Below, one piece after another: positions 2,572-60,794 of a stretch of DNA of 64,000 bases. Origin of the DNA: Psammoneis japonica (lineage: Eukaryota); the NCBI GenBank assembly GCA_008632985.1, contig QPGO01000151.1:1-64000 (forward strand), given 5' to 3'. Both the position numbers and the translations under genes were made by a program. The notes below the pieces were generated by a model, which saw only the letters and a list, made by a program, of their open reading frames with translations, searched no databases and was not told where the DNA came from. The first letter of the stretch is position 1. Each line of letters starts with the position of its first letter.

Positions 2572-3183
2572 TTAGATTAGGTTGTTGCTGGTCTTCACCT
2601 TTTTGTAAGTCGACGGATCCGCCTTTCCCAACGGACTGGCCCGAGCCCATGCCTGAATGCGTTCAACGACACTCAATTCTCCGTCCCCATTTAATTCCTC
2701 CGGCACGTCCATCCTGAGAGTGATGATGTTGTAGATATCGATAGTTTCCATATTTACAAAGTCTTCGAAATCATTCAGGTCTCGTTCAGAAAGATTGGGA
2801 ACATTCTCACTTGCCCACGTTCCAAGAAGCAAGTCAACTTCAAGCCATCCGCGTTGCTTTGATCGATAAACGAGTCTTTTCTTGCGCACCTCGACCTCCA
2901 TCTCTGAGGTATCAATTTCATCCGAAGTAGCATCCATTGATCCCTTCGGAATTCCCTCCAGCGTAGGGAGTCGAACATGACGACGGTATATTTCCTCAGA
3001 CTTTGGCTTTGCTACCTTTAGTAACTTTTCCTCTTCTTTAGACAATTTGTGCGTGGCCTCGCCGCTCTCGCCGCGATACCAGCATCGCTGGAAACATGCG
3101 TGAGACGGTGGCATGACAGAGTTATGCCTCATCGCACAACGAGGCGTTGTCAGCACTGATCGTAGAGCCATTCGAGACGCCAT
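2572..3183 (-). CDS. SDHAF2: Succinate dehydrogenase assembly factor 2 (Sdh5/SdhE family), mitochondrial
   Basis: RKKRLVYRSKQRGWLEVDLLLGTWA family motif (RGxxE); Arg-rich N-terminal presequence from ATG at 3183. Confidence 0.92.
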   Translation of the reverse strand: MASRMALRSVLTTPRCAMRHNSVMPPSHACFQRCWYRGESGEATHKLSKEEEKLLKVAKPKSEEIYRRHVRLPTLEGIPKGSMDATSDEIDTSEMEVEVRKKRLVYRSKQRGWLEVDLLLGTWASENVPNLSERDLNDFEDFVNMETIDIYNIITLRMDVPEELNGDGELSVVERIQAWARASPLGKADPSTYKKVKTSNNLI

Positions 3184-3607
3184 TCTCTGCAAGCTGATTG
3201 GTCTCTTCTGTGTAGGGCTAGGCGAATGTTGTTCAAGCAGCTTACTTCGTTAACGTTGTGGCTCGGCTCGACCGCGGCGCATTCCGCAAAGCGCCGCCAG
3301 CACAGAGCACGGTGCGCAGAGCTCGCGCCAGCCCGCAACAGCTGGTGCATGTTCGTCGATCGTGACAACATCACTTTCCCTTTGACAGAGGAGCTTAAAA
3401 CGATGCGTTTAGATTTCTACAATTAATAACAGAGAGCTCTCTACAGTTGGATCGAAGATTTGTCGGTACTAAGTCTCTAGTAGAGTTAGATAGATAGACC
3501 AGAATGTGACTTTGAGGGAAGTGATGTCTAGTCTCTAGTTTAATCGCAGAATTTGGAGTTTCTTGGTAATGTCGCTGTTGGTCGCAGGTCAAAATGCTGG
3601 CTAGCGA

Positions 3608-5958
3608 CTAGGGCGCTAGTTTGTGGGATCCTCCGCTCTTCAGAGAAGGTGACTCTGGGGTTAGGAGCGCAGTCAACTTCATAAGCATGTCTTGTTCCTG
3701 TCCTTTGTCCAAGCTACGACTGTCGGAAGTTCCCCTTTTACTTCCTATATCTTTTTGGAGTCTGGAGCAATCTCTTTGTATCGACTTTCGCATTTTCTTC
3801 AATGAAAGGGATTCTGTCTTTATTTCCTTCTGCATATCGTCCATGCGATCCTTGAAAAAATCCACATGCTCTTTCAGAACCTTTTGTCGTAACTCAGGAT
3901 CGTACACTTCTTCAAACTCGCCTTTACGTCCTCCCCACCAACGCCTCTTCTCCTGGTTTTGTAACACAGCTGGACTATCTAGAACTCTAAGAACCAAATC
4001 GAAATCTTGCGAAAGACTTATCATCTGTTCCGCTCTGGTATCAAGAAGCGCGTCCACAAACAGCACCCACGCTTCTTCTTTCTTCATGTGACTAAGCTCG
4101 ACCTTTTTCTTATCTATTTCATCTTGCTTCAGGTCTTTCAGTTGGTCCATAATATCAGAGAGTTTTGTTGCGGCCATTCTTGCAGATTCTGCGTCAGACT
4201 TGGCTTCCTCTAGTTCTTGCCGTAACTCCTCATTTTCTTTTGAAATCTCTCTCGACTTTTTCACTTCTTCCTTGAGAAGTTCCACCTCCACTTTCATTGC
4301 AGGAATCTCAATAGCTGCAGCACTCACAGATTCCTGATTGTCCACCTTTGCGAAACGCAGCTCTTTCTTCAAGGAAGCAACTTCCTTTTCAAGTTCTTTT
4401 ATTCGTTGTGGAGCATCAATACTCTCATCGCCATCTTCCACAGGGAGAGGAACTGGTTCCTCCTAAGCGGGCAGAAACGGATTCGAGAAGAACAGCATTT
4501 ATTATTGAAAAATGACACGAATCGGTTTGTACACACGATGACTCATCGCTACTTACATCGTCGCCAGAAGAGTCTGGGTCAAACGAAACGACTTTCGCAA
4601 TTCCTGGAGGTGCATTCGAAGACAGTGAACGAAGAGCTTGTTGCAGTTCGGCCACTTCTGTCTTGAGAAGCTCGTTTTCCCGCCTAAGGGCGGCGGCTTC
4701 TTCGGGACTAATGGACTTTACAATGTTGCGAGTAGCGCTGTTCTTGATGTTTCTCGCGCTTGTTGCGTATCTCAATGTGTTGACAGACTCATCAATGTTA
4801 AAATCAGCAGGGCTGACACAAGCGATCATGACTGTCTTTGAGTTTCCGCCCAAGGAATCCTGTAGCAGTCGAGTTAGCTTGGAATCACGGTAAGGTGGTT
4901 TTCGGGCTGGACCCTTTGACTTTTTGCCCTGTTCTGATAGGGCTGAAACGACCTGTCCCAAAACAAACAGTCCTTTGTTGATATTGATTCCCTCCTGTTT
5001 GCGACTGCCCTTAGCACCTGTCTTCTTTATGCGTTCGGAACCTAAAATGGCGACACAAAATGATGAGCACAATCAGCAAATTCTCGGGCTGCAGCAGTAG
5101 CGTCTCAACTTCCAAAGATAAACACAACGAAACAGCTCTCTCACCTGCGAGATCCACAAGTGTAAGCTTCGAAGTAAACTTATCAACTTGGTTGTTCTCA
5201 GAATTCTCGAGAACCCCAGATATCTTTAGGGTACAAATAGCATGAGACCGACTAGACACCGCATTCATCGCAGTCGCCGCCACCACTCGTTTGCTGGATG
5301 CCTCCTCCATTAGCTCGCCGATTTCTCGTGTAGACTTTACTTCCCTAGCTGCCAATCCCGATACGTAAATCTCTCCATTCAATGTTTCTCGAATCTTCAA
5401 GCTGGTATTCTCGTCCGCTGCCAGCAAGTCTCGTATTTCTTCATTATAAATTTCCAAGTACGACAGCTCAATTCTTGCATTACCGTCGCATTTCTCTTGA
5501 ACCGTTTTGAACAAATCGGCGCACGCACGAGGAATCACGCCGTCCTCTGGCTGAACGTCTACTCCTCCTCCGGCGGCGGTACCCATTGTATGCGTTTTTC
5601 CTGCTCCAGTTTGACCATAGGCTAGAATTGTTGCATTGTAACCTCGGAAAATGTCGTCACAGACAGCACGGCAAGCTCCAGAACGGACATAGACTTCTTC
5701 TTGCGTACATTGTTTGTCGAACACTGCATCCAACTCAAACCAGCGCTTCCCCCCAGTTACGCTAGGCCCTCTCGCTTCGACCAATTCCGGTTCACCACTA
5801 GAAGCCGACCAATGCAAGCGATTATCGATATCGCCAACCCTCTGCTGCATAGAGGTCACGGTTTCTTTTGATCCGCGCTGTTCCTCGGTTCGCGACAGCG
5901 GACGGATTCTCGCGACAACGCGAACATTGGAGGAAGATGCGGCCGTGTTTCCAGTCAT
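3608..5958 (-). CDS. Kinesin motor protein (kinesin-4-like) with coiled-coil tail, 3 exons
   Basis: [11 protein letters not shown]-loop, SSRSH, DLAGSER across intron 5144-5042, [18 protein letters not shown]; second intron 4556-4463 (GTAAGT...TTAG) joins the tail in frame. Confidence 0.93.
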
Positions 5959-6378
5959 TTTATTCTATTTTAGATTAGTATGTGAGCTTTTGAAAGGAAG
6001 AACCGGGAAGTGGTCAACAGAATACCTATGATAGAGCATAGAGCCGATGTGGCGCCGAGCAAATGCGCAAGCTCTTGAACAAAAACCTGCCGTCGTTGTT
6101 CCCTCTTGGCGGGAATTGTGCCCATACGTGTGTCAGTACAAACATTTCATGTAGAAGAGACATTCCAGTGCCGAGTCTCAACGGAAACATTATTTAAAGG
6201 TATTGGCGTTGAACGCCATTCATTACGTTTATTCCATTTTGAATAAATCATATCCACGTCATCGCCGAAAAATCCCCGCCCCCGCCAAAAAGATCTTCTG
6301 CATCACGAAAGCTTTGGACACAATGAGGAGCCCTTCGAGTTTTAATTCACCATTAAGCGCTCACGGGACAACGAAGAC

Positions 6379-7934
6379 ATGGCGCCGGACGCAGAGCTCT
6401 CTGCAGTCCAGGCGCCGTCTCTTGACAACATTCCAGTCTACAAGTCCTTTCTCGAGGAGCCGGAACTCTACTGCCGAATCCATGTTCATTTGATTGGTGC
6501 TTTTTCAACGGATGGGGGTGGCATTCGGAAACGGCGCAACAAGTTGGGAGGCCGTCACCTTGTAAGAGACAAGATTGCGGACCCATACGTCATTGTGAAA
6601 ACCGTTGGTTCTGACACGGGAAGTACGGACTACTTTCCCATTGGCACGCATACCTTTAAGGTGTTGGAGAATTGCCGTATGCCTCTCTGGGATGCAAAGT
6701 GTCTTCTAATCTGCAAGAAAGATTCAACGGACTCAGTGAAGTTCACCATGCTGGACGAGAACCGTAGGAAGGATGAGGTTCTCATGGAGGTATCGCTTCC
6801 CCTCTCTGACCTCCCTGCCGCCGGCGAAGGTTGGAAAGAGTTTTCACAGTCCCCATCCGAAGGTCCCATGAAAAACATGGAGCTCGCGTTTAGCATCAAA
6901 GTTACAGACTGTGCTAATCACCGTATTGTTTCCAAGGAAGACACCGATGCGCTTTGTCTAATTTCTGGGACGATACAGTATAAAGAGGAGACGCTATTAG
7001 GGGACACTAATGATGACGAAGACAATGCTCTCCTTCAGTGCTGGCGAACCCCTGGTAACAACAGCGCTGTATTGTGGATCTTGGGCCGCAACGACTGCTT
7101 TATGCATCCACACGTGGCCAAACCACTCTTTTTCGAGCAAAACTATGATGTTTACGTGCTTAACTATAGCCAGAATGGAAGATGTCGCACGAAGGGTTGG
7201 GTGCACGATGCCCATTGTAACTCCCACAACAAGCATGGGGATTTCAATGTGTACAATCGCCAGATTGATGAAGCAATTGATATTATCAATCGCCTGTCGT
7301 ATGAGACGGTGCTTGGATACGCTCATTCAACCGGCGGGCCGGTACTTATCAATTATCTCATGGAGAACAATGACGAAGAATTTGATGGGTTTATTTTCAA
7401 CAGTCCATTCTTGGACTGGGGCTATGTGGGTGGTGACATGGTGGAGTTTGTGCTGGAAAACGTTGGATTCATGGAACGGATTGGAGTCATGCCCCTAGAC
7501 ACCAAGATGGGGGCAGCCGCTACCCCAGCCTCTCTCGCCAAAACGCCCCTCCATTATCTTGGAGAAGACATTGTTCTTTCTGAATGGGCCGCCCGCATTT
7601 GGAGTCTCTATCACTTTGGTGCGATCGACCCCTCTACAAGGTGCCCATGACGGCTGGGTTTGCTCGAGGGGTGACGAATGTGCACCGCAAACTCGAGAAA
7701 AGGCACGAGAAGAAGCGCGCCATTACTTCAAAGCCCTTCTTGTGCATCACCTCGCGAGGTGATGATGTACTCAAGGCTTCGGAGACAACAAGCCGTGCCG
7801 ACTGGATCGGACCTGCACGGTGTGAAGTGGAACTTCGCCACAACGGGCATGATGTTTTCTTGAGCCAAGATGAGGAGGATGTGACTATGGCTGTCGAAAT
7901 GGTAGCCAGTTGGATGAAATGCCATAGCTTTTAG
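6379..7934 (+). CDS. C2-domain plus alpha/beta-hydrolase (lysophospholipase-like) protein
   Basis: ADPYVIV...PLWDAK C2-like N-terminus; YAHSTGG nucleophile elbow, NSPFLDW, DDVL and GHDVFLS motifs; frameshift near 7617. Confidence 0.8.
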
Positions 7935-9254
7935 AAGTGTCAGGTAGAGCCTACCAGTTTATAAGTAATAAGATACCTGATTGTGGTGGCGCTTTCCCGG
8001 TCGCCGTATTCGAAATCATCTTTTCCGCTTCGGGGTTGTATTGATGCAAGTCCAGTTGGGGCAGAGGTGATGCATGACATGCAACAACGTCTCTATGTAC
8101 TCTTGCTGGTCACCAAGCGGTAAACCCACTTCTGTTGCTGAAGCTTGTTGCGACCCCCAGTGTGCTGCGCGCGGGTCCTCGATAACCGCTGATGGCAATA
8201 GATCCTCGACTTGTTGGAGGATCTTGCCAAGGCTGCCCTCGCATTTCAAACTGGGCACACATGTTTCAAAGACCTCTCGGTAATCTTCAATCCGATTGCA
8301 CGAGTGGAGAGGTCTCTGTCATCATAGAAACACACATGGATCATCTTAAAATCCTCCTTCAAAAGGAACAGTGACATTGTCATGACCCCATTTCCCTTGA
8401 CCATTAAAGGTGCTGAAATTCATGACATGGCTCTGTTCTTCACAATCATGCATCCATCTTCACCAAGGATGATTCATTCATTCTTGCAAGAAACACCACC
8501 TTCTGACAGCTTGTCAACACAATCTTGGTTCTTCTCAGCATTGGTTTTTATTCCACACCCTGCAGAACCATGCCACTGCCACACCAAACAAATCAGCAAC
8601 ATGCTTTCAAGCATTGTTGTTGCCTTGTTTGGTCACCCTTGACAAAAGTTCCTTGTGCTCCATTGCATGGTGCTTCAGCTCAGAATGCTTTTGTGCACCC
8701 CTGTTCCTCTTTTCTTTTTCAGCATGCTTTTGGTCATAATTTGGATTTTTCACCTGCATGTGGACACTGCATTCCCTTTGGCACTGGGAGTTGTTGGTCT
8801 TGACCATTGTTGCAGTTGTCAATGAATGAGACTTGTCACAATGGTCAGTGCATGGCAACATCATGAGTTTTGTGCGGTGCAAGCAGATGGGTTTGTCAGG
8901 TTTTGTGCTCCATTTCAAAACTTTTTTGTTTGTGATCATGTGGCCACACAGTCAATGGATGCCATTGTGGATTTTCTTGGTTGTAAGAGCAATTTTTTGT
9001 GGCTTGTGGCATCTCACTGGTGCAATGAGTGCTGAGTGTTTGGAGGATTTTGGCACTCCAATCAGTCAGATGTGCCAACCTGTCCTGTGACCCAACATTT
9101 GTTTTGACACTCAAAGATGAGATGGGCCAATTCCACAGCCACACAAACCCATGATCCAAGAAGAGAGTTGCAAGCAGGACCTGCCACAAAAGGAATGAGA
9201 GCAGGGTGTGAAATCATGCCTGTGCAAGACACTGGAACAGGTTCCAGCAGACCG

Positions 9255-9520
9255 CGAATGAGAAAAAGGCCAAAATGCCTCAAGCTCTGTCTTGATCAAT
9301 GACGCCATTTCACTCTTTTCATGGTGTCACCCAAAGGGGGTTGCAAGGCAAGGAGGCTAAGGCAGTGCTTTGCACAACATTGCTGCAAAGCTGGCAGATG
9401 AATGGCAGAAGCCTTGCTCAGAAGTGCGCCGATTTGTGAGTGCTGCAAGGATGAGCATCGCTGCTGCTGTGAGAGCTGCCCATCAGTGCCTTGCTTGGAA
9501 GCTTGCATGTCACTTCTTCT
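9255..9520 (+). mobile_element. Relic C-terminus (restriction-like endonuclease region) of a CRE/R2-type non-LTR retrotransposon
   Basis: Across frameshifts: KCLKLCLDQ*RHFTLF..GKEAKAVL..NIAAKLADEWQKPCSEV..RMSIA..VRAAHQCL, resembling the recalled KYL..CL.QRRHF.PF..KW.KPYS.V..RMSIA.VRA.H.CL consensus. Confidence 0.7.
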
Positions 9521-10189
9521 CAGATCAGCTCCAGGGGGGCACTGGTCTGTCCCTTTGCAAGTGCCAAAAGGCCCAACCTGAGTCAGATTCTCCACTTGCA
9601 GAGACAGAGTGCCAAAGCCACCCCATCATCACAAGATGCCATGGACAAAAACCTTGCCTCCTCAAACAATGTGGGCAGCACCCCAGGCCCTGCAGTGTGC
9701 CAGGATTGCATTCAAATCACTCACGCAGGATGGCGTGCACAAAACCCAACCCAAATTCACACAACTGCATTTTGACAATTGCACAAAACCCTTTTGGTGC
9801 CCTGCTGTTCACACTGTTTTGCATCTGAGTGCAGCATGGTGACTGGTGACGCGATGCACCATCAATGTTGTTAAGGCAATTGCAGAAGCAGAGGGCAAAA
9901 GCAAGATGATTTCATTTTTCAGGATTTTCCACTGTGCCAGAAAGATGCAGCATGCCACACATCTCATCACCAAAAGGCAGCAACATGAAGGTGGTGTGTT
10001 GTTGCAATGTCATGTCAGCAATGTGCTCCAGAGTCTTTTGTCATTGTGGACATTCAGTTTGTTGAGTTTGCAACAGCTTTCATTTGTGCATGTCTCCCAG
10101 GACAGCCCTCACTCATTTTCAAAATGTTGCAGCAATGGAGGAGAGCTCTGTTTTTCAACCAGTCACTTTGGTGCATTCATTGTTGAATG

Positions 10190-11900
10190 ATTGAGGCTGC
10201 ATCCAGCATTTGAAAAGTCTCATCATCATCATTGGCATTGAACGGCAATTTGTCAAGCAAATTGCACTCACCAGAATCCAAAAAATCCAACTCAGCAGAA
10301 TTCTGATTCCCTTCAATTTCACCAACAGCATCACTCTGTGACATCATCTTCTCCACCTTGCCAACATTGCCACCATCTCCTCCCTCTCCAGCTTCAGCCT
10401 CAGCCACTTCATTTGTCTCATCCATGCACACAACCTTCACCATGTTTTCTTCTCCCTTCAACTTCAGGTGTTCTGCATGATTCAGACACTTGCTTTTGAC
10501 CTCCATGTGAGGCAACCAGAGTGCCTTTGCAAGATTTGCATGTCTTTGCTGTCTTGCTCACCTTCTTGGCTGCTGTTGCTGGCAAAGGTGAGTTTGTTTT
10601 GTCTGCAGCATCTCCAGAGACATCATGTTTTGCAAATCCCATCCCTCTCCCACAGCCTCCATCATGCTTGGATTTCTCAAAAGCTGCTTGGTGGCTTGAT
10701 TTCTGCAGCATTTCACAATGACATTTTTTCTGCCTGATCTTGTTCACTGCCAGCTTCTGCTTTGCCAGCTTTGTGTTTCTCTCCTTGTCAATCATTGCCA
10801 GCCATTCTTTTGCACTGTCTGCCACAGGAATGCCCAGCTTTCTGTGCAAAAGGCAAAAACAGTCTCTTGGCAGCCATGGACAGCAGTGCTTGTGGACATG
10901 GAGATGTGGTTCTGAAGAGACATGAATCAGCCACACATCCGGTTCTTTGGTGTGCACAATGCAGTCATCTGATTCAGCACCTTGTTTGCTTGCATGTTGT
11001 TCTTGTGTGCAATTTCTTGTGGCCTCTCCAAACTGACAAACACTTGGCCACAATTTTGTGCAACTCTTTGTGCAAGCAGGGATCAATGTCTTTGCTGCAG
11101 CACTGATCCGATGTTTTCACTTGCTCTTCTTTGCTTTCCATCTTTTGTTTGCGCCAATTTCCACAATGCTGGTGGTTGTTGAAGTGATGTTCAAGAAGGC
11201 CTTGGAAGCATTCTCTCTCATTCAGTCTCTGGCAAGTCAAGGAGCTGTGTTCTCATGTGCCCAAAATTCTTCACAAGCCTCAACATGTCACAACATGCAA
11301 TGGATGTAACTTTCTTCCCCTTTCTCTTCAGATCACACAAAAGCTGTCCAAGAAAAAATGTCTTCAATGAGATGGACCCCACTTGAATTTGGGTTTGGGG
11401 ACTCCTCACTTCAGTTGGCCTGTGCGCTCCACTTTCACCAATTTGCCTTGTGAATTGGGTGCCCTTGGCCAGTCCTTGAGACATGGCCATGCTTTGCCTT
11501 GTCTTTGATCTTTCACTTGAGCTGAGCCCACATCAAGGAGTTGTCATCAGCGCCAGTCAACCCAGGGGACACTTTCTTTTTCTTGCATGTCTCCTTGCAC
11601 AACAGAACAGCACTGTGTGCTTCCAATCACTTTGAATGGCCTTTGCAATTCAAGGGGCACTGGTGCATGGGCACAGTGGCATGGCCAGTGCATCACATGC
11701 AGATGTTCTGCTGCTTGCACAAAACCATCACAATGATTGGCTTGTGAAGCTTGGGGCCAATGACAGCGGCATCTTCAGAGAGAGAGAGGCGTGCCATTGT
11801 CCACTGTGATGAGCTTGCCAGCCCATGTTGGTTGACACTGTTGCAGAAATGCCATTTGCCGGATGCCATGCACTGGTGCAAAGGAAGGAGAGTGCACATT
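10190..11900 (-). mobile_element. Degenerate Mutator-like transposase
   Basis: VSTNMGWQAHHSGQWHASLS (DMGWQKR.SG.RY.S.S), HQCPLNCKGHSK*LEA (H.C..NY.GSSK.ME), ADDNSLMWA (DDDS.MRA), LEHHFNNHQHCGNW, TQANKVLNQ..TPKNRMCG. Confidence 0.78.
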
Positions 11901-12149
11901 GCGCAAACAGAAGAGGATGATGAGTTGGATCCTCAATCAATTTTTCAGAGAAGATGTTGAGTCTGTCATGAGAGCGGAGCCCAAACAAATGCAAAGGAGC
12001 AAGTGTGTTGCGTCTTGCCATTGGATGCAGTTCTTTTACAAGTGGCTGTGGAACGTTTGTCACGAACTCGGCCTTTCCATCTGTGACAACTGCATCTGGT
12101 GTTTTGTCACTGTGATGTGATGTTGGCACAGTGTGTGGCTTGCTTGCTC

Positions 12150-13200
12150 CTTGTTTGCACACAGCACGCAATTGTCATTGCAAGTCTTTTGAAAGGGTTC
12201 CCATCCTCCTTGAAGCAAAAAGCAGTCTCTGTCGTTCTTGTGGGATGACAGAGTGGGAGCGCGATTCATGGTGGCAGCGTTGCGTCCGGCAGCTGCTCCA
12301 TTTTTGATCAATGATTCCCATTTGCTGCTGCGGCATGACCCATCATTCATGGACAACAACCAAACGTTGCTGCATCCTTCCAATCCACCATTCTTGCATT
12401 TGGCACCACCAAACAGTGCGGCAACACCATCTTGCACGGCACATGGACAAGGCAAAGCACAAGGACACAGAGCATTGTTGGTCATTTCGACACATGTCCA
12501 TTCCCATGTGGATGCATCCAATGCAAACACCTCATTGGACATGGTCCCATCCTGTGCGGCTCCACACATCATGAGCAGCTTGTTTTTCGACATTGGTGTG
12601 GCGGCATGCAAACCACACACCACATGGTGAGGGGGTGTCACCCGCTGTGGCTTGCTTCTCAACAACCACACCACTGCCCTTTTCATTGACAGTCACAACA
12701 AGAACGTGATTGGCGCAGCAATGAGTGTGCAACAAAATGCAGTCGTCATGCAAAGCAACCGCGACATGATGACTTGCAGGTCCATCGGGCAGTTTGATGT
12801 TTTCCAGCACATTCCATTTGCTTCAATCCTTTAATTGCACGACATCGTCTAGAATGATTCTGCCAGTCCCTGATGTTTGTGGATCCCAGCCACCAAACAA
12901 GGTGGGCTTGTTTCGTAAAATGGAGCAGGCAGATGCCAACCGTGGGTTGGGAGCATCGCTGGCTTTTTGTGGAATCCAACCTCAATCATTGCTCCACTTC
13001 CACAAATCATTCTTGACATGTTGAGTTGTGGCATTGCCGTTTTCTTCTTTTTCTTCCACATGTCCACCAAAGACGTGCAAGTCACCTTGATTTGTCACAA
13101 AAGAAACATGTCCGGGTTGGGGTGGAGCGATCTTTGCACTCCTCAAGATCTGTCCACTCAGCCTTGCAGCTCGTTGCCAAACTCTCAACTTGCAGCATCA
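12150..13200 (-). pseudogene. Kelch-repeat protein pseudogene (hypermutated host-gene copy)
   Basis: GHVSF..GDLHVFGGH, NDLWKW, LFGGWDPQT, LFGGA, LLQGGWEPFQKTCNDNCVL; stops and frameshifts; expected Tyr replaced by His/Cys. Confidence 0.85.
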
Positions 13201-13563
13201 TGACAAAGAACAACAATGCAAGTGTGCAGCTAAATTGTGATGCACAGTGGCGACTCATTGTCCTGTTTTGTCATGACTTGTGACAGCAGCAGCAACAAGA
13301 ACCACGAACCGCAACAAAAGAGAAAAAAATTCTCCACCAAACCCTTGCACAGACTGACCTTGCTTTTTTTCCAAGTGTGAGAAAAAATTTGCTCAATGTG
13401 GGTTTATGCCCATGTTCAGTCATTGACAGGTCTGAATGAACCATGTGAAAAAAAAAAGATTTTGACCAGACAAAATCGGGTGAAAATCGGGAAAAAATCT
13501 GCAAAATCTTTTTTTTGAAAAAAACAACAACAACATGCATGTTGAGTCATAAACACACACACA

Positions 13564-13609
13564 ATCAACTGTCTGCAGACAGTCCACAGACAGTCTGCAG
13601 ACAGTTGAT
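13564..13609. repeat. Perfect 17-bp inverted repeat (hairpin)
   Basis: ATCAACTGTCTGCAGAC (13564-13580) / GTCTGCAGACAGTTGAT (13593-13609); related palindromic run TCAACTGTTGATCAACAGTTGATCAACAGTTGA at 13758-13790. Confidence 0.85.
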
Positions 13610-14859
13610 CTGTTGTTTGTCAATGACTGAATCCATGTGTAAATTTTTTTGAAAAAAAGCATTTTTTTTCCAAATGAAAAAGAAAATTTGCCAAATGTGG
13701 GGGTTCATTTTCGGAAAAAAATGTTGTGCACATGTGCGTTCATTGTAAAAAGCATTGTCAACTGTTGATCAACAGTTGATCAACAGTTGAATTTTTTTGC
13801 TGTGGCGCAAAAAAAAAACACCAACAAAAAGACGACCGACGATGCAACGGAGATGTCAGCAGATCATTCTGCCGGCAAAATGTCGTCGTGAAGTTGCAAC
13901 ATCCAAGTTTACAAATGAGGTTGTTGTCTGTCGACACAATCGCTCCTTCCACCCAGTCACAATCATGGACAGGCACTGGCCAAGAATTGGTTGGATGAAA
14001 GGTCGCTTGCGACTTTGGCACGTCCGTCTCGTTGAATGGAGATGAGACGATTCTTGCAATTGGAGACACAACAAACATTGCTGTGCAAACTGTGCTGGTG
14101 GTGTTCTTCTGTTTAAATGCTGCTCTGCCTTGGACCGTTGGGTTCTGCTCATCAGCGATGTTCCTGGACAAGCTGATTGTGACCGATTTGGATTTCCGTG
14201 TTGCTCTCGGACGTGGGAGACATTGTTGCTGTCGGAGCTTGCCATCAAAAGACGAAAAATGGGACAAGGTCAGGGTTGGTTTGATTGTTTGAACATGATG
14301 TTGTCATTTCATCCTGGAGCCATCTCGGGCAGAGAGTTGTTGGTCGAGCTGCAGATTGTCAATTTGGCATTTCTGTTTTGCTCACTTGGAAACCGTTCTC
14401 ACTGTTGGGACAAACAATTGGAACAAATGAGGGTGGGAATGACAATCAATCAACACAACAATTGCCAGTTGATGCTGGCGCCCTCTGCGGGCTTTTAGCC
14501 GACATTCGTGGAAACAAAGCTGGTTGCAGGTGTTTGAACCATGCTCTGAAGAGATTCACAAATCATGATGAATGGCCCACTGCTTCTGTTGGCATGCTGC
14601 AAATCGATCACAACAAGTCAAACCACAACTCTGTCTAAGTGCGCCATTGTCACCAGCACACCATGCCACAAGAGAAGCATCATGCGCTTGTTTTCTTTTC
14701 CACTCTCGGGCAAGCGGACCTGGCTCAATGTCACCGCAGCTTGGATGATCAGCACAGTTCATCAGGAAGCATCTTTTCTGTTTCTTCATCCTCTGGTGTT
14801 GCCTGCTGCTGCTGCTGTTGTTGATTGTGATGATGTCCAAAAAAGTGGAGAACCATGGC

Positions 14860-15210
14860 AGACACACTCACGACGAGTCCGTCACATTGAATCCCACTCA
14901 AGGAATGTCCACAAAACCAAATGGATGCCACCAGTGTCATAACCTTGCATGCCAATCCAATGATGGAACACGTCAGGGCCCCAAATTCAGCAATGGTGAC
15001 AAAAATAGAAACTTGTCTGAGTGCACCACTCAAACTGAGAGCCGAGAGCCACCAACAAAAAGCCCGTTTTTCGAAGGACATGAACTTTGTTGAGTGCAAG
15101 GTGTGACATGCCAGCCAAGATGGTTTTCCCCAATTGAACATTGAATTTACACTCATGAGCTTGTCCTCGTGTGCACCCGTGCCACCGTCAAAGCAGTGGA
15201 AAGTGGCAAA
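14860..15210 (-). pseudogene. Fragment of a UAA-family (SLC35B) nucleotide-sugar transporter, hypermutated
   Basis: FDGGTGAHEDKLMSV and IFVTIAEFGALTCSIIGLACKVMTLVASIWFCGHSL match the family C-terminal pattern (DG..G.Y.D; FGAL....I...RK..T...S...YGH). Confidence 0.78.
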
Positions 15211-16044
15211 CATTGTTTGTTCCATGCTCGCACACACTCATCCTCCCCACAAAGAGCGCCACACCACCACAATCATGACGACATTGTCACATTGTTTCTT
15301 CACAGGACATTTTCTTTCCTCTTTCCCATGAGAGCCCCCACAAGCATCACGTGTGCTGGTTTGCAACTCTTGGCTCTTGGTTGACACTCAAGTGGGACAA
15401 ATGACATGGCGAAGTGACCTTGCCGAACAAAAGACACTGCCCATGGGGAGGTGAGTCCCAAAATGGCAAAGCGTGAAGCTGGTGGAACAGTGGTGGGTGT
15501 GTCGTTCTGAACATAACGTCCTGCCGCGCAGCTGTCATGGTGTACAATGACGATGTAGCAAACAAAACGCAAGTTCGTGCAACTTGCGTCCACCCGATGT
15601 TGTGCACTCCAACAACAATCCGTGCACGACAAAGGAGTGCATGATTCCAAAAAAACACAAGAGCAACCACAGGAGTTCTGTTTTTGTACAGTACAGTAGT
15701 TTTCTCTTCTGAAACAGAACATCAACATCACACCAAGAACTACTGTAAACAACTGTAACACCCGACACCCGCACACCAAAGAAAGTGAGTGCGGGAAGAT
15801 GCGTTGGGCGGTCGCAGAATTCGCGCGATTGGATTTTTGGAATTTTTGAAATTTTTGGTGCTGACGTCCAGATATATTTACATCTTAACATCCGTATATA
15901 TTAGAGCTCGCGACCAGCGATGATGGTTTCGATGATTCTTCATTTTCAATTTCACCATGAGCACACACCAGCGCCGTTGCCGCACAACCAACCACCAACC
16001 ACCAACCACCAACGTTGATATAAAGCCCCGATAGCACAAAGAAG

Positions 16045-16708
16045 ATGCGAATCTCTTTCATTCTCATAACGTTGTCAAGCTTACTGCTAGTGAATTGCAG
16101 TGCCTTCGTGTCTCCCAGCACAACGGGAGCCAAACTCAATCGCGTTCTTTCCTTGCGCAGTTTGACAAACAACAATGACCATTCAAGGCCGTTGTTGTAT
16201 CAAGTGCTTGCGACACCTCGCGAGAGTGACCTAAAACCAGGAAATTGCAACTTTTTCTACAATGATGAAGTGTCAAGTCACTTGCACGGGTACATGTTGT
16301 TGTTTGGATTGTTTGCTGCAAAAGATGAGGTGTGCTTCAAGTGCTCATGTACCGTGTGTACGTCTCGTTTCGTTGTTTACAGGTCACTCATCCTCTTTTT
16401 CTTATCTTCACGCCATTTCTCGTTATTAGGTTTTCGTAGTTTCCTTTGGAATCTTTGCTGCTCTAGCGGCCACAGCTACCACAATTGGAATATTGCCAGC
16501 CAATCCACGAGTCCCTGCAGTTGTGGCGATTGCCACCTTGGCTACAACTCTTCTTGTTCGCCAGTTGATACATCCAGAAATGTTGGGATACGAGGCTGAT
16601 TTGGCATGGAAATTTGAACTCTTGGTTTGCGCCGTCAATGTCCTTTGGGGATTTGGAGGTTCGTGGCGAACCAAGGAACCCAAGAATGGAGCCACGTTTG
16701 GTTTTTGA
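16045..16708 (+). CDS. Small predicted plastid-targeted membrane protein, 2 exons
   Basis: Signal peptide ending CSA-FVSP (diatom bipartite motif); intron ~16330-16429 gives in-frame hydrophobic helices ending at TGA 16708. Confidence 0.75.
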
Positions 16709-17753
16709 ATTTGTGAAGTAAATATCCTTTCGTCTCAGAATAGGTAGTAGGATAGTCCAACTGCTGAACGGAGGACTGGTGGGCGCGGCTACGTTTTGCG
16801 ACTGCCACGAGACAAGCGACAGTGGGAGGACTTGATTCATTCAATCGACTCGAGTGGTGCTCACTCGCACCATGCCAGATTTCGCGGGATTAAGTCTAGA
16901 TTTGGAATACTACAATGACGACTGAGCGGATTGATAACTGCTCTACTACCAATCTGCTCGATTCCAGTTTCAAGGGATCTGCGCTTATGCGGTGAATGCC
17001 TCTCTTACGTCTAGCTGAAGTGCTGCCTGCGTCTGATTCATCATCTTATTCTGCATTCCCTGGTATTGTTGGCATCCTTGTGACTGCATACAGATCACCT
17101 ATTAAATCCTGTCCTTACAGTTGCATCTGACGGCAAGGCGTGAGGGGATTGCTTGATTCTGAGGTGGTGAGTCCCATTTATGATTGTGCCCGGAAGTAGT
17201 TTCAGCCGGTTTTTCTCCAGCAACGACATCTGAACACCTATTTTGTACTCCCAGTCTGGAATTATGGGTAGCGGGGATTGCAGAGGAGGCAAGCCTTAGC
17301 TTCTCACTGCAGGGGAATCAAGCTGTGAAAGTTGCTGCCGATCGGATCCAGGTTCAGAGGTATCAAGAATGTTGTCCTGAACCTCCTCATCGTGGCGCAG
17401 TGTGGTTTGGGACATTTCGCAGTCCGTGGCTGCGTTCTTCGTCGTTTCGGTGGTTGTTGTAAGATTCAAAATACTGTTGAAAAGGAGGTCGAAAATTACA
17501 AGCTAATATATACTCTGATCCGTGGACACGTCATCGCCTTTGACTATCATATCGTCCGATCCTCGCATCCTTTTGTGCTATGATTGCCGTTGTGAAGTGG
17601 GCCCAAGGCGGCAACTACGAGTATGATGCAGACTTACGGTGTTAGGGTCTGCTAAGTTATCTTGATTATTTCCTAAAGGGACGAACAATATCGAAAGTTT
17701 GAAGCGAGATCTTCTTCTCAGAAAGAATCAATCGAGAGAGGGCGTGAAAGACT

Positions 17754-17894
17754 GGACACCCATGAATTGATTTGAATGATTCAATTCAGGAGTGACAAAA
17801 AAAGAAAGATTGGACACCCCTGAATTGAATCAACACTAGCGATCGGACACTCCTGAATTGAATCGAGATTCTTTGGCTCAATTCAGGAGTGTCC
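17754..17894. repeat. Cluster of five 17-bp motifs GGACACYCCTGAATTGA in both orientations (probable transposon end)
   Basis: Forward at 17754, 17812, 17845; inverted at 17781, 17878; 17845-17861 and 17878-17894 are perfect reverse complements. Confidence 0.85.
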
Positions 17895-17954
17895 ACGAGG
17901 ACACGTCTTCTCTGGATTGATTCTTCCTGAGAGGAAATTCTCACATATTGCGCA

Positions 17955-19126
17955 TCAGCATCTCTTCAGTCGGGGATCCTTAGGAATCGGACCGCCTCGT
18001 GTGGTTCGGTATTCTTCCCGAAACCGTCGCGACTCGTCTTCGAATTCATTGTGGATCGCATTCTGCGATGCAGCTGAAGGTTGTCCCTGTGGATGGGTCT
18101 GTCCGAGTAGACTGTTGTGTAAGTCCGTTATCTTGATTTGAACGGCTTGGGGTAGCGTTGGCAAGGGCGGTGCAGACTTGGGGTTCATATACGGCATTTC
18201 CATCGAGATGCGGTGTGTTGTTTCATTCCTTCCTCCCGGCTCTCTGAAAATAAAGCAGTCGTATGCCCGTGCTGCTGCAGCATGCTCAGCAAACGTCTTT
18301 TTCGCTGCAAGTATAATGCGTAATGACCAAATGTGAGGGTTCTCATCAAAGATTCAACAGAGTGACATTTAAAAAAAAGCAAGCACGTACTGTACCAAAT
18401 CACGTCCACGTTCGTCCGAGGATCGCGGCGAACAGAATAGTTTTTCGCGTCACCGTAGCGACCACAAGGGAAGATTTCACCGGTTCTGGGTGAAACGAAA
18501 ACGGCCGTAAACATGAGTTGATGCGGCATCCCACCGTCGTGCCAACTGTAATAATCCTTTTTGGAAAGCAGCTGGCGGTGTTTCTTCCCGAACCAACCAG
18601 CAAGTATTGCTTTCGGTTGTATGTCGCCGAGGGTTGAGTTCGACGCTTGAGGAGTGTTCACGGTCTGAGCTGCACGCGAAGGTGCTCCTCCTTGTTTCCT
18701 TCCTGAATCGGCGGTGATGGATGAAAATGATGTTCCTGATACGGACGGAAAAGCCACCGATTCGGCGATAGACACACGACTGCTAGTCGTGGTGTCTTGT
18801 CGTGAACCCTCAGGTATCGATGACCCCCAAGTACGCGAGACCCAAGAAGATGGCACCTTATGCGTTTGGTGGGTACTGCGGTGGCTCCTTTGATCCTCGT
18901 TTGTGATGGATGAGACTTCTGTGCTTGCTATTGAAGGCGTCGATACCGAATCGGCGACAGAGGCGCCGCTTGAGGTTGCGTGCTGCGAACCCTCCGTGAT
19001 CGAGAAGCCAGGGGGCGTACCGAGAGTCCAAGACGATGACGCTTTCCCCAGTTTATCTTCATTGCGATGACCATTTCCCCATCTTGAGCCTGGGCCTGGT
19101 GGCCCCCCTCCGAGACTCGACGACAT
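17955..19126 (-). CDS. Protein with Ser-rich disordered N-terminus and a divergent double-stranded-RNA-binding-like domain, 2 exons
   Basis: PKAIL..W....GMPHQLMFTAVF...WY-T-KKTFAEHAAAARAY after removing intron 18390-18305; resembles the dsRBM KKxAExxAAxxA helix. Confidence 0.7.
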
Positions 19127-19917
19127 GGTGTTTTGACACGATCGTCAGTTTTCATGTGAGAATGATCGTGGTACGTTTGGAAAGGAGACCCGTCAAACCA
19201 AAATTTGACGGGCGATACGATAGGGTTCCCTCTGATGAGTGGATGGCATGATATTGACTGGCGCTACTTGTACGGTATGTAGATGTATGGCACCGAAATT
19301 TTCAGATTTTCGTGTGAAAGAGTCGTCCTCGTCGTCGCGGCGCGGGCGAGCTAGTCTACTCTGCTAGGCCCTACCGGTACATAGCAGTAGGCCTCTAAAA
19401 CCTACCTGGCGGTCCTATGTGCATCTATCGCCAGCCTGAAAGCGCAATAAGAATGAAGGCGCGGAAAGTTCTTCACAGGGTTGGTCAAGAACCCGGAGCC
19501 ACGACTAGTAGAGAAGCTCCCCGCTCTCTTTGGCCCTTACGAGTAGTCTTGCTCTCTCTACTCTAGAGCAGAGAGGGGCCCTACTTACTCTCTTATCTCT
19601 CTACTCTAGCTGGAGAGTATCGATACTCTAAAGCTCTAGAGTAGAGACAGCTCTCTCTGCAGAGCTCTAGACAGGCTACCTCTAGCTAGCCACCCTCTCC
19701 AGCTACTAGAGAGCAGTTAGACTCTCTCTGCTCGAGAGAGTGCACCGTACATGTACTCTTATGATCTAAGACTCTTTAGCGTTACCCTCGTTATTATGCT
19801 ATTTAATCGAGATTCAGTAAGTAAAGACAAGAGGCGGACTCATTCAAGCAATGCTACCTAAAAGGAACTAGCCAAAGGGCAATCATGACTGTGTATGTTG
19901 ATTCGAAGCGGAGGTGA

Positions 19918-22213
19918 CTATGCAGCCCTCTGCTCTTCTTCGTGATGAGCTCCATCAGCAGCTTCCGTGACAATAGGATCATCACCGTACATGTGTCCAA
20001 TCAAATCTTCATAAGTCCTGAGCACCATGTGTCTTCGGATGCTCATTTTCGGAGTTAGAAAGCCATTCGCAGCGGTAAAGGGCGCAACCAAGCTCCACGA
20101 CTTTGGTACCTCAAACTTTTTCATATTTTGGCAGGCAGATGCAATTTCAGAGTCGATAAGATCCGAGACGCGTTGGTCGTTTGCCATGTCTTCCTCCGAA
20201 ACGTCCTCCTTGAGTTTAAACTCCTGTCGGATAGCTTCCCAGTCGGGCACAATCAGTGCGGTGTTGTGTGGGCGATTGGCGCCGCAAAGAACAATCTGAC
20301 TGATAAAGCGACTGAGTCCAATCTTTTCTTCGATTGGAGTGGGAACGACATATTTTCCATTCTCAAGTTTGTACTGCTCCTTGATTCTTCCAGTATCTTT
20401 ACAAATCCGTCCACGTCAATTCGTCCCAAGTCACCAGTGTGGAACCTACTCGATATGCAAGGGAAATGCATCTTGTTAGAAAGAGGTCGCTGCTGTCGAA
20501 CTCGACGTCGATCAGGCAAGCGCAACTTACATTCTGGATTTTCCGTCTGGGGCAATGCTGATGACTTCATCGGTAGCCGCCTGGTTGTTGTAATATCCAC
20601 GCATCACATTGTCGCCGGAACAGCAGATCTCGCCTTCTTCGCCCTGAGCCACAGGCTTGCCGTCTTCTCCAATAATATACACAGTCACTCCATCAAGAGG
20701 CCTGCCACCGGTTCCTGGTTTCCGAGAAGTAGGAGTATTCATTGTGATAATGGGAGATGTTTCTGTTAGGCCGTACCCCTCACAAACGGGAATACCGAGA
20801 TCATCCATAAAGTCCGTCACTTCGGCCGGTAGCGCAGCACCGCCAGCAAAGCCATGCTTGAGATTGCCACCAAACCGCTCACGAATCTTGGAAAGTACAA
20901 TGGAATCCAAAGCCTTCAACTGAAACTTTTCAACAGCACCAAGAGGTTGTCCCCCGTGTTCCGCTTCCACCCGGCGCCTTCCCAACTGTAGCGCCTTCCT
21001 CATTAGGTTCTTTCGGATCGGGTTTGAGTTCTCCATGGTGTTGTGGACACCGTCATAAATCCTCTTGTACAGCGTCGGAACGGCGAAGAGAACGGTGGGC
21101 TTGACAAACTGAAGATCCTCCAGAATGGAAGGAACTCCACGGCAAATACCCATCGACGATCCATGAGCAATCTCTGCCCATAATTCACAAGTTTGTCCAA
21201 AGGAGTGAGCCCAAGGCAAAAACGCAAGACTGCGGTCCGTTTCACGATAAAAGTCATCAGGTTCCTCCTGTCCCTTCAAGCCCGCCTTGATATTCGATAC
21301 AAAGTTCAAATGAGTCAACTCCACACCCTTTGGCTTTCCGGTGGTGCCACTCGTATAAATGAGATTAGCCAAATCGTCCTGCGTTGGCCTTGTAATCAAG
21401 CTCTCGGTATCTTCCGATGCGTTCGCCATTGCTGTAGCAAAAGCGTGCGGTTCACCCATAGCTGCGTCCAGGCACAGAACCGACTTGACGAGGGGGGTTG
21501 AAGGAAGCACCTCCTCACGACACTTGTCGTAAATGTCTTGGTTCGCGCAAAAGAGTGTGGTGCAGCCAGAATCATTCAAGATGTAATTCCAATCAGAAGG
21601 CATCTGAGCCTCGTACATGGGGACAATCGCGGCATTGAGAGAAAATGCGGCGGCACCAATAGTGGCCCACTCCCAACGGTTGTTCGAGATGATTCCCACC
21701 TTATCGAATTCCTGAACACCTAAACAACAAAAACAACAAGGTTTTCAGTGAGCGAGAGCAGTCCAATTAAACTCAAAACATTCCAGGAAAAATATTTTAA
21801 CAACAAGTGAACTTACCCATCTCCTTAAGTACTTGACGACACTTGTTCACATTCGTTCCGTATTCTCCAAAAGTCATCCACTCAAAGTCTCCTCCTTTCT
21901 CGGATTCCTTATACGTTCCAAACAACTCGTGTTCGTTGAATGCAACACAAGCATTCACCTGTGCTTCATGGAGTGTATCAAACTTGACCATTTGACAATC
22001 GTCAAGAATCCCTTGTTTTCGCAAATTCACCAAGTCGAGTTCCGCATAAATCGTCCGCGATAAAGTCTTTCCACCAGCATGATAGGAACGCAATGATCCT
22101 CCGTTCTTGCACTTTAGCAGCGGTTCCACTGCAACGGTCGATGAGGGAAGCAAGCTCCTGTAAGACTTGCTTCCAATCCGACGCACCGCGGTGCAAAGCT
22201 GAGTGCTAGCCAT
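19918..22213 (-). CDS. Long-chain acyl-CoA synthetase, 3 exons
   Basis: IYTSGTTGKPKGV, EGYGLTETSP, FHTGDLG, TPKMSIRR; introns 21816-21720 and 20530-20446; 1-nt deletion near 20395 in ITGRIKEQYKLENGKYV. Confidence 0.93.
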
Positions 22214-33037: not shown

Positions 33038-33519
33038 GACTGAAGAACGCTCTATGATCTTCCACCGACCACCATGCCATGCAAAAGGGACGGCTGATAA
33101 GTTCCTATTGCTGCCCGCTCATGGTGATTTCGAAGAAAATCCTAGCCTATGCACATTGCTCATGGATCTGTGAGGTAGGAATATTTAAAAGCCAAGTTTC
33201 ATTTTTCAATTTTACACTGTTTGTGCTCGTAGGTTTCCAGACGCACCGTCAGCTGTCACTAACGTTGCTGGTGTTCGTTCCTCATCCCTTGTGACATGAT
33301 GTGTGTGTATGATGTGTAGCAAGAAAAGGTCAAGAGCCGAAGAGACATCGACGAGACTATAAGGGAATCGAGAACCCAACCCAAGAAGATCGCAAACCGG
33401 TTCGAAGCCAACAAGAAAAATGAGAACGTGGCTGAGAAAGAGTGTGGAAACGAGAAGAAGGACGAGAACAAGAATGCCAACAACCTGGAAGGCCACTTTG
33501 TTGTTGGCATTAGACTGGT

Positions 33520-36500: not shown

Positions 36501-37700
36501 TCAGATTCAACTGCACATTGACAAAGGATTTGGACAAAATGTTCTTCGTTGAGTGAGCCCAAAGTGCTCACATTTCTTCCTGCCTTTGGTTTTTCTGAGG
36601 ATGCCCAGCAGCATGGTGGTGCAACATCAACCAACACTTTTCTCCAGAGTGCCAAAAAAGCAGCTGCACAACAGGTCAACAGTGCCCCCCCCCCAGAAAG
36701 CCATTTTCCAATTTTCCCTGTCTGTTCAGGGCACCACCCCAACAGTTTGTGAGCTGCCTTGGTGAAGAATTTTGCAATTGCCCAGCGAAGTTGACATTTG
36801 ATTTTGCGTCTCCACGTGCACAGGTCTAACCCCAAATGAGCGATGGCCTCAATCTTGCAAGTGCAGACAGCAACAGGCACAGTTGTTGCCAATGTCTTTT
36901 TGGCAAATGGGTGGCAGACATGAGGCAGATTTTTCACTTTTCAGGTTGGCAGTGCTCAACACACCACTGCCAGGGCAATGTGGCCTCAAAAAGGATGAAA
37001 GAAGCACCAAGTCATGCCCCCCACAATGTGAGGAAGTCTGGGGCTGGGGAGCAGTGCACTGGTGAACAAGTCTTTTTTGGTTTGCATGCATTGAAGTTTT
37101 GTTCCCCCCCCAGGAGCTGACAACACAAACGTTTGTGGCAACAGGAAGAGGAGACATGTTTGCACCCGCCAGGAAGCAAGCAAGCCCAGCTCCTTGTGCA
37201 GACAGGCATTTTGTGCCCTGCAAAACCAAGGTGATTTTGAAATTGTCTTTCAGAGCCAACTGATGAGAATGAGACCTGCGCCAAAGCAAGTGTCAATGCA
37301 AAAAATGACAAGGCCAAGACAACAAATGCCATTTGCATGTGCTGCGTGCATGCTGCACTTTGACATGCCCTGCACAAAAAAGCAGGGCTCTCTCAAGCAA
37401 ATCAACTCTTGTCTTGTTGATGATTTTTTCTGCAGTGTTTGCATGAGATCAGCAAAAATGGTGGTGATCTTGGCGCTCAAATTGATGCTGCATCAACCAA
37501 CCCAAGAACGATGCCCTGCAAAAAACACACACGACAGCGAGAGATGCGAGAGATGTGCCATCACTGCCCCCACCACCGCATCATGTCAGCTGGCAACCAA
37601 AAAGACACAAGGCATGCAACACGACAAAGGAGGACAAGATTGCACCAGCAAAAGGGCAATGGGAAACGTGTGCGGTTTTTTGTCGATGGTGCGAATTTTG
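33520..37700. other. TpA-depleted hypermutated block B (unclassified repeat/TE relic)
   Basis: Same TA/CG loss and TG/CA excess; dense Cys/His-rich spurious ORFs nearly lacking Tyr; family not recognised. Confidence 0.88.
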
Positions 37701-37771
37701 ACCCGACAGTTTACCGTTTTCCCAGTGAGTGCTTTATTCACCACAGGTGTGCGTGCTAAACCTTCGTGCTC

Positions 37772-37806
37772 CACGCACGCACGCACGCACGCACGCACGG
37801 CACGCA
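37772..37806. repeat. (GCAC)n microsatellite
   Basis: CACGCACGCACGCACGCACGCACGCACGGCACGC. Confidence 0.9.
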
Positions 37807-38028
37807 ACACCCCGGCATCACCGATGACAGACCTTGGAGGGAGAAATCACCTTACCGGTACCAAAGAAAACGTTTCAAATGTAGAAGTTGCGAACAGTGT
37901 GTTTGACCATCACGACACAAGGACGACTCTTGAGCATCATCACAAAGCAACCATGAACTTGCGACGTTAAGCACTCGTCGTTCAAACAAAGTTACTTTTA
38001 GAACAGAGTGAAAAGGGATTGCAAAGAC

Positions 38029-52080: not shown

Positions 52081-52081
52081 N
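52081..52081. other. Single N, probable contig join
   Basis: Only ambiguous base seen; composition changes abruptly across it. Confidence 0.7.
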
Positions 52082-54831: not shown

Positions 54832-54899
54832 AGGAAGAAGACAAGGAAAAATCTTTGTGCCATGAAGCTGCGCAGAATCTGCACAGATCATGACATCAG

Positions 54900-60780: not shown

Positions 60781-60794
60781 AGTGCTGAGTCTCG

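Follow-up and report, generated by a model that had tools for sequence, protein, structure and literature searches.

Introduction

Mutation directed at TpA dinucleotides and confined to discrete regions of a genome has been described for the chlorarachniophyte alga Bigelowiella natans, where 231 of the 302 nuclear point mutations found in mutation-accumulation lines fell within two integrated viral regions (Mettrop et al., bioRxiv 10.64898/2026.01.13.699255). According to the main text of this preprint, to which our statements about B. natans are limited, 230 of these 231 mutations were A→G or T→C changes, these all at TpA, with the remaining one being a G/C→A/T change in the nucleocytoplasmic large DNA virus (NCLDV) region; the mutation rate in the viral regions was ~6 × 10–7 per site per generation, a rise of ~1000-fold; and the genome holds 124 clusters that are poor in TpA and rich in CpA and TpG (bioRxiv 10.64898/2026.01.13.699255). 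Its authors propose DNA adenine deamination by a homologue of ADAT2 as a candidate mechanism, and report the signature as a possible defense against invading DNA (bioRxiv 10.64898/2026.01.13.699255). Here, we describe a similar pattern in the diatom Psammoneis japonica, where the first 64,000 nucleotides of contig QPGO01000151.1 (assembly GCA_008632985.1), hereafter referred to as the window, contain three blocks of DNA that are almost free of TA and poor in CG.

Fungal repeat-induced point mutation (RIP) is a further point of reference, in which C:G→T:A changes occur mainly at CpA, creating TpA and raising the AT content. Diatoms carry DNMT4 genes that are related to the RIP gene RID and have no established function, and their transposable elements (TEs) are CpG-methylated, as stated in excerpts of a published article (PMC9998398). 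Our literature search, which covered the B. natans preprint without its supplements, found a TpA-specific process for B. natans only, and none for diatoms. A preliminary description of the window, made from its letters alone, had stated, without a literature search, that its author knew of no such system, and has been overtaken by the TpA→TpG/CpA changes reported for B. natans.

Results and Discussion

Three Blocks of the Window Are Almost Devoid of TA

Block limits were set from the positions of TA dinucleotides, in combination with a sliding dinucleotide count along the window, and the remainder of the window (the flanks) was used as reference. The resulting features, with dinucleotide frequencies given as observed/expected ratios (o/e), are as follows:

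8550–15513: block 1, TA-free and CpG-poor, 21 TA and 120 CG in 6964 bp, TA o/e 0.043, CG o/e 0.31
33512–37711: block 2, TA-free and CpG-poor, 8 TA and 49 CG in 4200 bp, TA o/e 0.028, CG o/e 0.20
52082–64000: block 3, TA-free and CpG-poor and reaching the end of the window, 33 TA and 142 CG in 11,919 bp, TA o/e 0.039, CG o/e 0.22
9872–11307: TA-free stretch of block 1, bounded by TAs that lie 1435 bp apart

The three blocks, 23,083 bp in total, contain 62 TA compared to ~898 expected at the flank o/e, and 311 CG compared to ~1270 expected on the same basis, such that TpA falls short of its expectation by ~93%, which is close to saturation, and the loss of CpG is ~76% complete. In terms of pooled ratios, the TA o/e is 0.04 in the blocks and 0.56 in the flanks, with corresponding values of 0.24 and 1.00 for CG, whereas TG (1.77 vs 1.10) and CA (1.79 vs 1.14) are in excess, together at ~1.8-fold the expectation of 1. 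The longest TA-free gap spans 1567 bp in the blocks (62145–63712, block 3) but only 227 bp outside them; at the flank density of 0.0368 TA per position, the chance of the 1435 bp without TA in block 1 is ~10–23. Similarly, the 21 TA of block 1 compare with an average of 488 in 200 mononucleotide shuffles, none of which had fewer than 445. The hand count given in the preliminary description for 9875–11305 (1431 bp) is exact, with 0 TA and four CG (at 10243, 10940, 11109, and 11152), and the three blocks, which it took to look the same, are indeed alike, with TA o/e of 0.028–0.043 and CG o/e of 0.20–0.31.

The depletion of TA in the three blocks is a real feature of this DNA, and it is confined to discrete regions with normal sequence alongside, the transition at the block borders being complete within ~100–250 bp. 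We note that the single N of the window (position 52081) falls directly on the left border of block 3, at a distance of 12 bp from the last dense TA (52069). It may mark an assembly join, and the sharp left edge of block 3 need not be a natural boundary. The window also contains AT-rich intergenic stretches that are rich in TA, one adjoining block 3 (51800–52069, TA o/e 0.93) and one far from the blocks (19501–20000, TA o/e 1.22), and the genome is therefore without general TA avoidance.

TA and CG Appear to Have Been Converted to TG and CA

The total of pyrimidine–purine (YpR) dinucleotides is virtually the same in the blocks (0.2375) and in the flanks (0.2361), with GC contents of 0.470 and 0.486, respectively. 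The deficits of TA (3.41%) and CG (4.54%) add up to 7.95% of dinucleotides, and the excesses of TG (3.90%) and CA (4.19%) to 8.09%. Conservation of the YpR total would follow from TA→TG/CA and CG→TG/CA changes, because these transitions keep the pyrimidine/purine class of each position. The gains are equal on both strands, with 2507 TG and 2602 CA in the blocks, and a runs test of TG against CA gave z values of −0.9, −2.4, and +0.6 in the blocks, compared to −1.3, −3.7, and −1.8 in the flanks, that is, no excess of strand clustering in the blocks over the flanks. Based on these counts, the hits at TpA appear to be site-independent, strand-symmetric, and nonprocessive.

AA and TT are not depleted, with o/e of 1.30 and 1.34 in the blocks compared to 1.15 and 1.14 in the flanks. 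An A:T→G:C change limited to TpA is thus indicated, if indirectly, by the dinucleotide balance and by the retention of AA and TT, as well as by the Tyr columns of a pseudogene discussed below. CG→TG/CA decay is, in turn, seen in the CG o/e, in the mixtures found in a 44-bp tandem array, and in the Arg columns of the same pseudogene.

A Kelch Pseudogene Indicates the Direction of Change

Judging from protein-family matches, block 1 holds decayed copies of two host-type genes:

12063–13185, minus strand: Kelch-repeat pseudogene (Pfam Kelch matches, E 4.7 × 10–10)
14752–15237, minus strand: TA-free relic of a UAA-family nucleotide-sugar transporter (Pfam PF08449, E 2.2 × 10–6, 27.5 bits compared to a cutoff of 26.2)

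The Kelch pseudogene carries two in-frame TGA stops and one frameshift (near 12620–12690), and has no Tyr codon. Its closest database homologue is 46% identical (43% in a search for longer matches), and a close paralogue is absent from the protein collection searched (best 46%). We aligned the pseudogene to eight homologues, and scored the columns with consensus Tyr, Arg, Trp, or Gly. None of the five consensus-Tyr columns is kept, three of these now being His (TAY→CAY), one Cys (TAY→TGY), and one Glu, the latter being found also in one homologue. At the nine consensus-Arg columns, two are kept, while the remaining seven are now Gln (three), His (one), and Cys (three), which are the residues that CGN→CAN/TGN changes predict. 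The control columns, in contrast, are largely intact, with Trp kept at 9 of 10 and Gly at 19 of 21. At the level of the encoded residues, these changes support a TA/CG→TG/CA direction.

Related Copies Differ by TG/CA Doublets

Copies of the same DNA provide a second view of the changes, both within the window and elsewhere in the genome. In block 3, tandem arrays occur at periods of 44, 32, 26, and 90 bp. Two features of this block allow direct comparison of copies:

59568–60708: 44-bp tandem array of ~26 copies (TRF)
58904–59126 and 63407–63627: arms of an inverted duplicate (blastn, 87% identity over 224 bp)

When 15 clean units of the 44-bp array are aligned, mixtures of CG, TG, and CA occur at columns 18–19, 35–36, and 40–41, and on this alignment the array is a record of CpG decay in place. 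The arms of the inverted duplicate are, in a pairwise alignment, separated by CA↔TG doublets and by CA↔CG changes. Doublets of TG and CA between copies would be expected if, following duplication, a TA or CG inherited by both copies was hit on one strand in the first and on the other strand in the second. A 32-bp tandem repeat also occurs twice within this inverted duplicate, in opposite orientation (59018–59334 and 63407–63515), and these repeats may represent the termini of an old element. In a self-comparison of the window, the blocks share no similarity with each other, and no long terminal repeat (LTR) or other terminal repeat pair was found.

Beyond the window, we used three sequencing runs from one sample and one study, as k-mer contigs with word depth. 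Of these, X1 is a DNA run, and X2 behaves like a transcriptome, because its contigs skip introns of 94, 103, and 100 nt with GT-AG ends. The 282 X1 contigs placed on 3000–20000 range from at least 99% alike (72 contigs) through 95–99% (43) and 90–95% (83) to <90% (84), and their summed word depth reaches 529 at 9804–10370 and ~190 over both 12072–13205 and 13773–15473, with the flanks at ~55. On this basis, block 1 is multicopy, with numerous diverged relatives in the genome. The differences to related contigs are dominated by transitions in both runs (424 transitions and 95 transversions for X1, and 178 and 41 for X2). Among the 40 of 580 difference rows listed, 23 lie inside block 1, of which eight make up four adjacent TG→CA doublets and five are single CG/TA↔TG/CA steps.

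A 1220-nt contig of X2 aligns to 12138–13271, where the Kelch relic is located, showing 135 differences and 18 gaps; it is probably an expressed Kelch paralogue, ~88% identical to the relic. No X2 contig lies over 9237–12071, and the depth over 8670–9236 is 0.39, which we do not take as evidence of silence. Separately, loose contig ends at 9943 can be read as a CpG-rich version of the same block 1 element, and one X1 contig links 13216 to 16269, leaving out 3052 bp, which points to a paralogous locus whose genes are ordered differently.

CpG and TpA Loss Have Different Footprints

CpG is not lost evenly from block 1, being nearly gone from 8.55–12.0 kb, yet only about half depleted from 12.0–15.5 kb, where the CG o/e is ~0.4–0.67 while the TA o/e is ≤0.1. 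In the case of block 2, the TA-free zone begins ~420 bp before CpG thins and ends ~230 bp after CpG returns. As the TA-free and CpG-poor footprints differ, two processes are called for. Given also that the TpA process of B. natans has no C→T component, we attribute the loss of CpG to the ordinary decay of its methylated form, and that of TpA to a separate process, which would be faster or longer-acting. The preliminary description had proposed precisely such a second transition process, removing TpA on both strands beside CpG decay, and this proposal finds support in the dinucleotide mass balance and in the Tyr and Arg changes; the TG↔CA doublets between sibling copies, the equal gains of TG and CA, and the mismatch of the footprints fit it as well. 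At the right edge of block 2, we also observe an open reading frame (ORF) of 291 aa (37095–37967, plus strand) that has no Pfam family and spans the block border, with its first two-thirds TA-free; within this ORF, CpG is back ~230 bp ahead of TA.

Proposed Origin of the Blocks

Taking these observations together, we consider it highly probable that the blocks are the fossil of a region-targeted TpA→TpG/CpA hypermutation, combined with CpG decay, in a diatom. The blocks would be silenced nuclear DNA that is at least partly multicopy, including tandem arrays, duplicated genes that have decayed, and, probably, mobile elements of old age, and two region-confined transition processes would have rewritten this DNA in place. 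The first of these would be a TpA-specific A:T→G:C change, giving TpG or CpA according to the strand hit, and the second the decay of methylated CpG to TpG/CpA. Mechanistically, the first process could be due to an enzyme that is directed to marked chromatin and acts at the TpA step in DNA. As to its identity, a deaminase acting on adenine and related to ADAT2/TadA is the likeliest, if tentative, candidate: the natural substrate of ADAT2, A34, follows the conserved U33, i.e., a U-A step, and the inosine resulting from a deaminated adenine would then pair with C. The outcome would be irreversible inactivation, with all Tyr codons, TAA, and TAG erased, and with TGA stops arising from CGA and TAA.

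Several observations weigh against this explanation, or against parts of it. Adenine-directed and thymine-directed chemistry leave an identical sequence outcome, and the deaminase is a candidate only. The substitution spectrum is polarized only in part, and database homologues are at most 46% identical to the Kelch relic. The surviving TAs are unevenly placed, in that 53 of the 62 lie in a TTA/TAA context, compared to 582 of 1504 in the flanks, and none lies in GTAT/ATAC, GTAG/CTAC, or ATAT, where ~296 would be expected, TTAA being the best survivor; this bias may stem from a preference of the process for certain neighboring bases, or from other mutations having regenerated TA. The run data all derive from a single sample in a single study, are possibly the assembly's own reads, and have no recorded sequencing platform. 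Finally, Pfam scans that covered 91 ORFs of at least 100 aa, 129 ORFs of 65–99 aa, and block 2 in its six read-through frames revealed no domain of a transposase, a reverse transcriptase, or a virus. The recognizable TE relics that the preliminary description had placed inside the blocks did not materialize as TE domains in these scans.

A related difficulty concerns the link to repeats. The stretch 15474–17174 is also raised in X1 summed depth (89–143, compared to ~53), yet its TA and CG are normal, and repetition alone is therefore insufficient for TA loss. The idea that the process is repeat-targeted is thus supported in part, in that block 1 is multicopy in X1, but this adjoining stretch, raised in depth as well, is not depleted of TA.

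Alternative Explanations

We next consider chemistry directed at thymine, in which an oxidase of the TET/JBP type would make 5-hydroxymethyluracil or 5-formyluracil at TpA in marked chromatin, and the modified base would mispair with G during replication, giving T→C, seen as CpA or TpG in place of TpA. In its favor, 5-formyluracil yields A:T→G:C transitions and dinoflagellate 5-hydroxymethyluracil prefers TpA, and, since TpA is self-complementary, hits directed at T and at A are indistinguishable in both the dinucleotide and the runs data. The authors of the B. natans work favor adenine deamination, albeit as a proposal only, and we regard a thymine oxidase as unlikely, although as a thinkable agent.

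The blocks could also be edited retrocopies, if double-stranded RNA had undergone ADAR-like A-to-I hyperediting, followed by reverse transcription and reinsertion. ADARs are, to our knowledge, known from animals only. The preference of ADAR for a 5′ U matches TpA (bioRxiv 10.64898/2026.01.13.699255), and gains on both strands would suit a double-stranded RNA substrate. Against such an origin, the units of the tandem array diverged from each other in place, the inverted duplicate is also converted, and two adjacent gene relics were converted together with the intervening DNA. In addition, the block edges coincide with no element end, there being no LTR or other terminal repeat pair in the self-comparison and no reverse transcriptase domain in the Pfam scans, and the mutations of B. 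natans occur in situ, in DNA that is present as a single copy. Taken together, RNA editing is very improbable as the source of the blocks.

We give equally little credence to error-prone patch repair of the Pol-eta type in methylated chromatin, in analogy to the A:T phase of immunoglobulin hypermutation, which had been named as a candidate in the preliminary description. Pol eta has its hotspot at WA, where it makes A→G changes, and the co-located decay of CpG could provide the initiating lesions. Such a polymerase would, however, change A to G at both TA and AA, whereas the o/e values of AA and TT given above are higher in the blocks than in the flanks, making for a poor fit. Moreover, only TA is removed, and almost completely so, the TA-free zone outreaches the CpG-poor zone, and the TpA changes in B. 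natans occur without accompanying C→T.

It is similarly hard to believe that no mutation took place at all, and that the blocks are an artifact of systematic errors made during base-calling or polishing of the assembly wherever a base was modified (e.g., methylated CpG together with a TpA modification). Miscalls at modified bases are mostly transitions, and, as noted, the runs have no recorded platform and are possibly the assembly's own data. The preliminary description had likewise considered a base-calling artifact. Against such an artifact, three X1 contigs (349, 541, and 1011 nt) reproduce the TA-free sequence of block 1 with 0 differences at a word depth of 32–40, a depth that would presumably need accurate reads. 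The Kelch relic, furthermore, also has a frameshift, stops, and many other differences from its paralogue, and copies disagree with each other at converted sites. Lastly, that the blocks are acquired foreign DNA, viral or other, that avoided TA before its arrival and underwent no host mutation would suit the lack of detected homologues for most block ORFs, but is extremely improbable in view of decayed host-type genes with Tyr→His/Cys changes at conserved sites, a YpR total equal to that of the host flanks, and sibling copies in the genome that differ by TG↔CA doublets.

Other Content of the Blocks and Flanking Genes

Apart from the Kelch and UAA relics, the Pfam scans of block ORFs gave only subthreshold matches, and block 2 has no Pfam domain in any of its six read-through frames. 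Subthreshold zinc-finger matches (zf-CCCH_2-like_3 and zf-RING-like) lie at 59706–59927 and 63061–63297, both on the minus strand and in TA-free tandem repeats, and are most likely artifacts of the Cys/His enrichment that results from TA and CG loss. A subthreshold Microtub_bd match was found at 62755–63195 (E 0.0072), and ORF 10421–11116 has one weak phmmer match (E 8.5 × 10–5) among 1.84 billion representatives. One further frame was pursued as a possible transposase:

55788–56741, plus strand: 318-aa open frame in block 3, with ESM Atlas features at 0.87–0.94 to DUF4371/ZBED-type clusters

We considered this frame as a relic of a hAT/ZBED-type transposase, but with no relevant Pfam match at E up to 5, nothing relevant in a PDB sequence search, and an AF2 model with a pLDDT of 33, it is no more than a lead.

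The genes of the flanks are compact and eukaryotic, and encode a kinesin, an LRR protein, an AMP-binding enzyme, a topoisomerase, a GAF-cyclase, a PP2C, and a histone deacetylase (HDAC). The best matches of the latter are 75% identical, and its named relatives are all diatoms (Attheya, Seminavis robusta, a Bacillariaceae metagenome-assembled genome, Mayamaea pseudoterrestris, and Cylindrotheca fusiformis), which sets the window apart from Bigelowiella. ESM Atlas matches were uninformative as to the taxon. In the kinesin region, a transcript at 3514–6068 (minus strand) is spliced in X2 at 4462–4555 and 5040–5142, with GT-AG ends on the minus strand, and another intron lies at 16328–16427; introns of ~100 nt fit a diatom-like gene structure. 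Among 80 HDAC-related metagenome loci, the two that are diatom-like contain no TA-free windows, and are, at 17.8 kb together, too short to conclude from. One window in a bacterial-type metagenome locus passed the TA-free filter, and was disregarded.

Implications

The blocks would be the first diatom case of TpA hypermutation, and the most complete example of a process of a kind known since 2026 from one other alga. With the signature present in a diatom, the process would extend to a second lineage, one that is distant from the first, dominant in ecological terms, and amenable to genetics with existing tools. More broadly, TpA-directed DNA editing could conceivably be an old genome defense common to distant SAR lineages (diatoms and chlorarachniophytes) that runs to completion in diatoms on marked chromatin, alongside cytosine methylation, a generalization that we advance with considerable reserve. 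If it is true, the two processes would jointly erase both self-complementary pyrimidine–purine steps, TpA and CpG, and TA-free blocks would be an easily scored genomic fossil, such that phylogenetic profiling could pinpoint the DNA adenine deaminase or thymine oxidase. The responsible enzyme would then be a natural A-to-G editor of double-stranded DNA.

In practical terms, a TA o/e <0.1 in combination with a TG/CA o/e >1.5 provides a sequence marker for genome surveys, and the question of the enzyme becomes testable through the deaminase or oxidase families that co-occur with this marker. A natural enzyme making A:T→G:C changes on resident chromosomal DNA would also be of interest to base-editing work. 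For annotation, such blocks present two pitfalls: the absence of TAA and TAG gives rise to long ORFs that are false, and the Tyr-free, Cys/His-rich pseudoproteins that result from them mimic zinc fingers.

Comparison with Known Systems

Fungal RIP is, in its logic, the nearest to the process proposed here, being a region-confined, irreversible, and transition-only inactivation of duplicated or mobile DNA in a dinucleotide context. The chemistry is nevertheless the opposite, as C:G→T:A change at CpA is not what the blocks show: TpA is removed, the CpA o/e stands at 1.79, and the GC content is barely changed. RIP acts on duplicated DNA and comes to a halt near where the duplication ends, whereas the link to duplication is partial here, with a depth in block 1 of up to 529 compared to ~55. 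The decay of methylated CpG in silenced transposons is matched by the CG→TG/CA mixtures in the 44-bp array and by the Arg→Cys/His/Gln changes in the Kelch relic, but this accounts for the CpG half of the pattern only, as it cannot remove TpA. Antiviral hyperediting by ADAR and APOBEC in animals is likewise a deaminase-type mutation directed against selfish nucleic acids, and ADAR prefers a 5′ U; these enzymes act, however, on RNA or on single-stranded replication intermediates, and not on kilobases of resident chromosomal DNA.

The closest correspondence is with B. natans. The host there is a chlorarachniophyte (Rhizaria), while the host here is a diatom (stramenopile), and the targets there are integrated viral DNA. 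Here, the Pfam scans gave no viral or TE domain, and block 1 is multicopy with relics of host-type genes. The active NCLDV region of B. natans retains 3.3% TpA, compared to a TA frequency of 0.0027 (o/e 0.04) over 4–12 kb in the present blocks. CpG loss is strong here, while the term "CpG" occurs 0 times in the main text of the preprint, the supplements not being covered by this count. A mutation rate was measured there, whereas the process proposed here is read from sequence traces. What the two share is an exclusive TpA→TpG/CpA change, in discrete regions and on both strands, which leaves lasting clusters that are poor in TpA, rich in CpA and TpG, and home to many unannotated genes.

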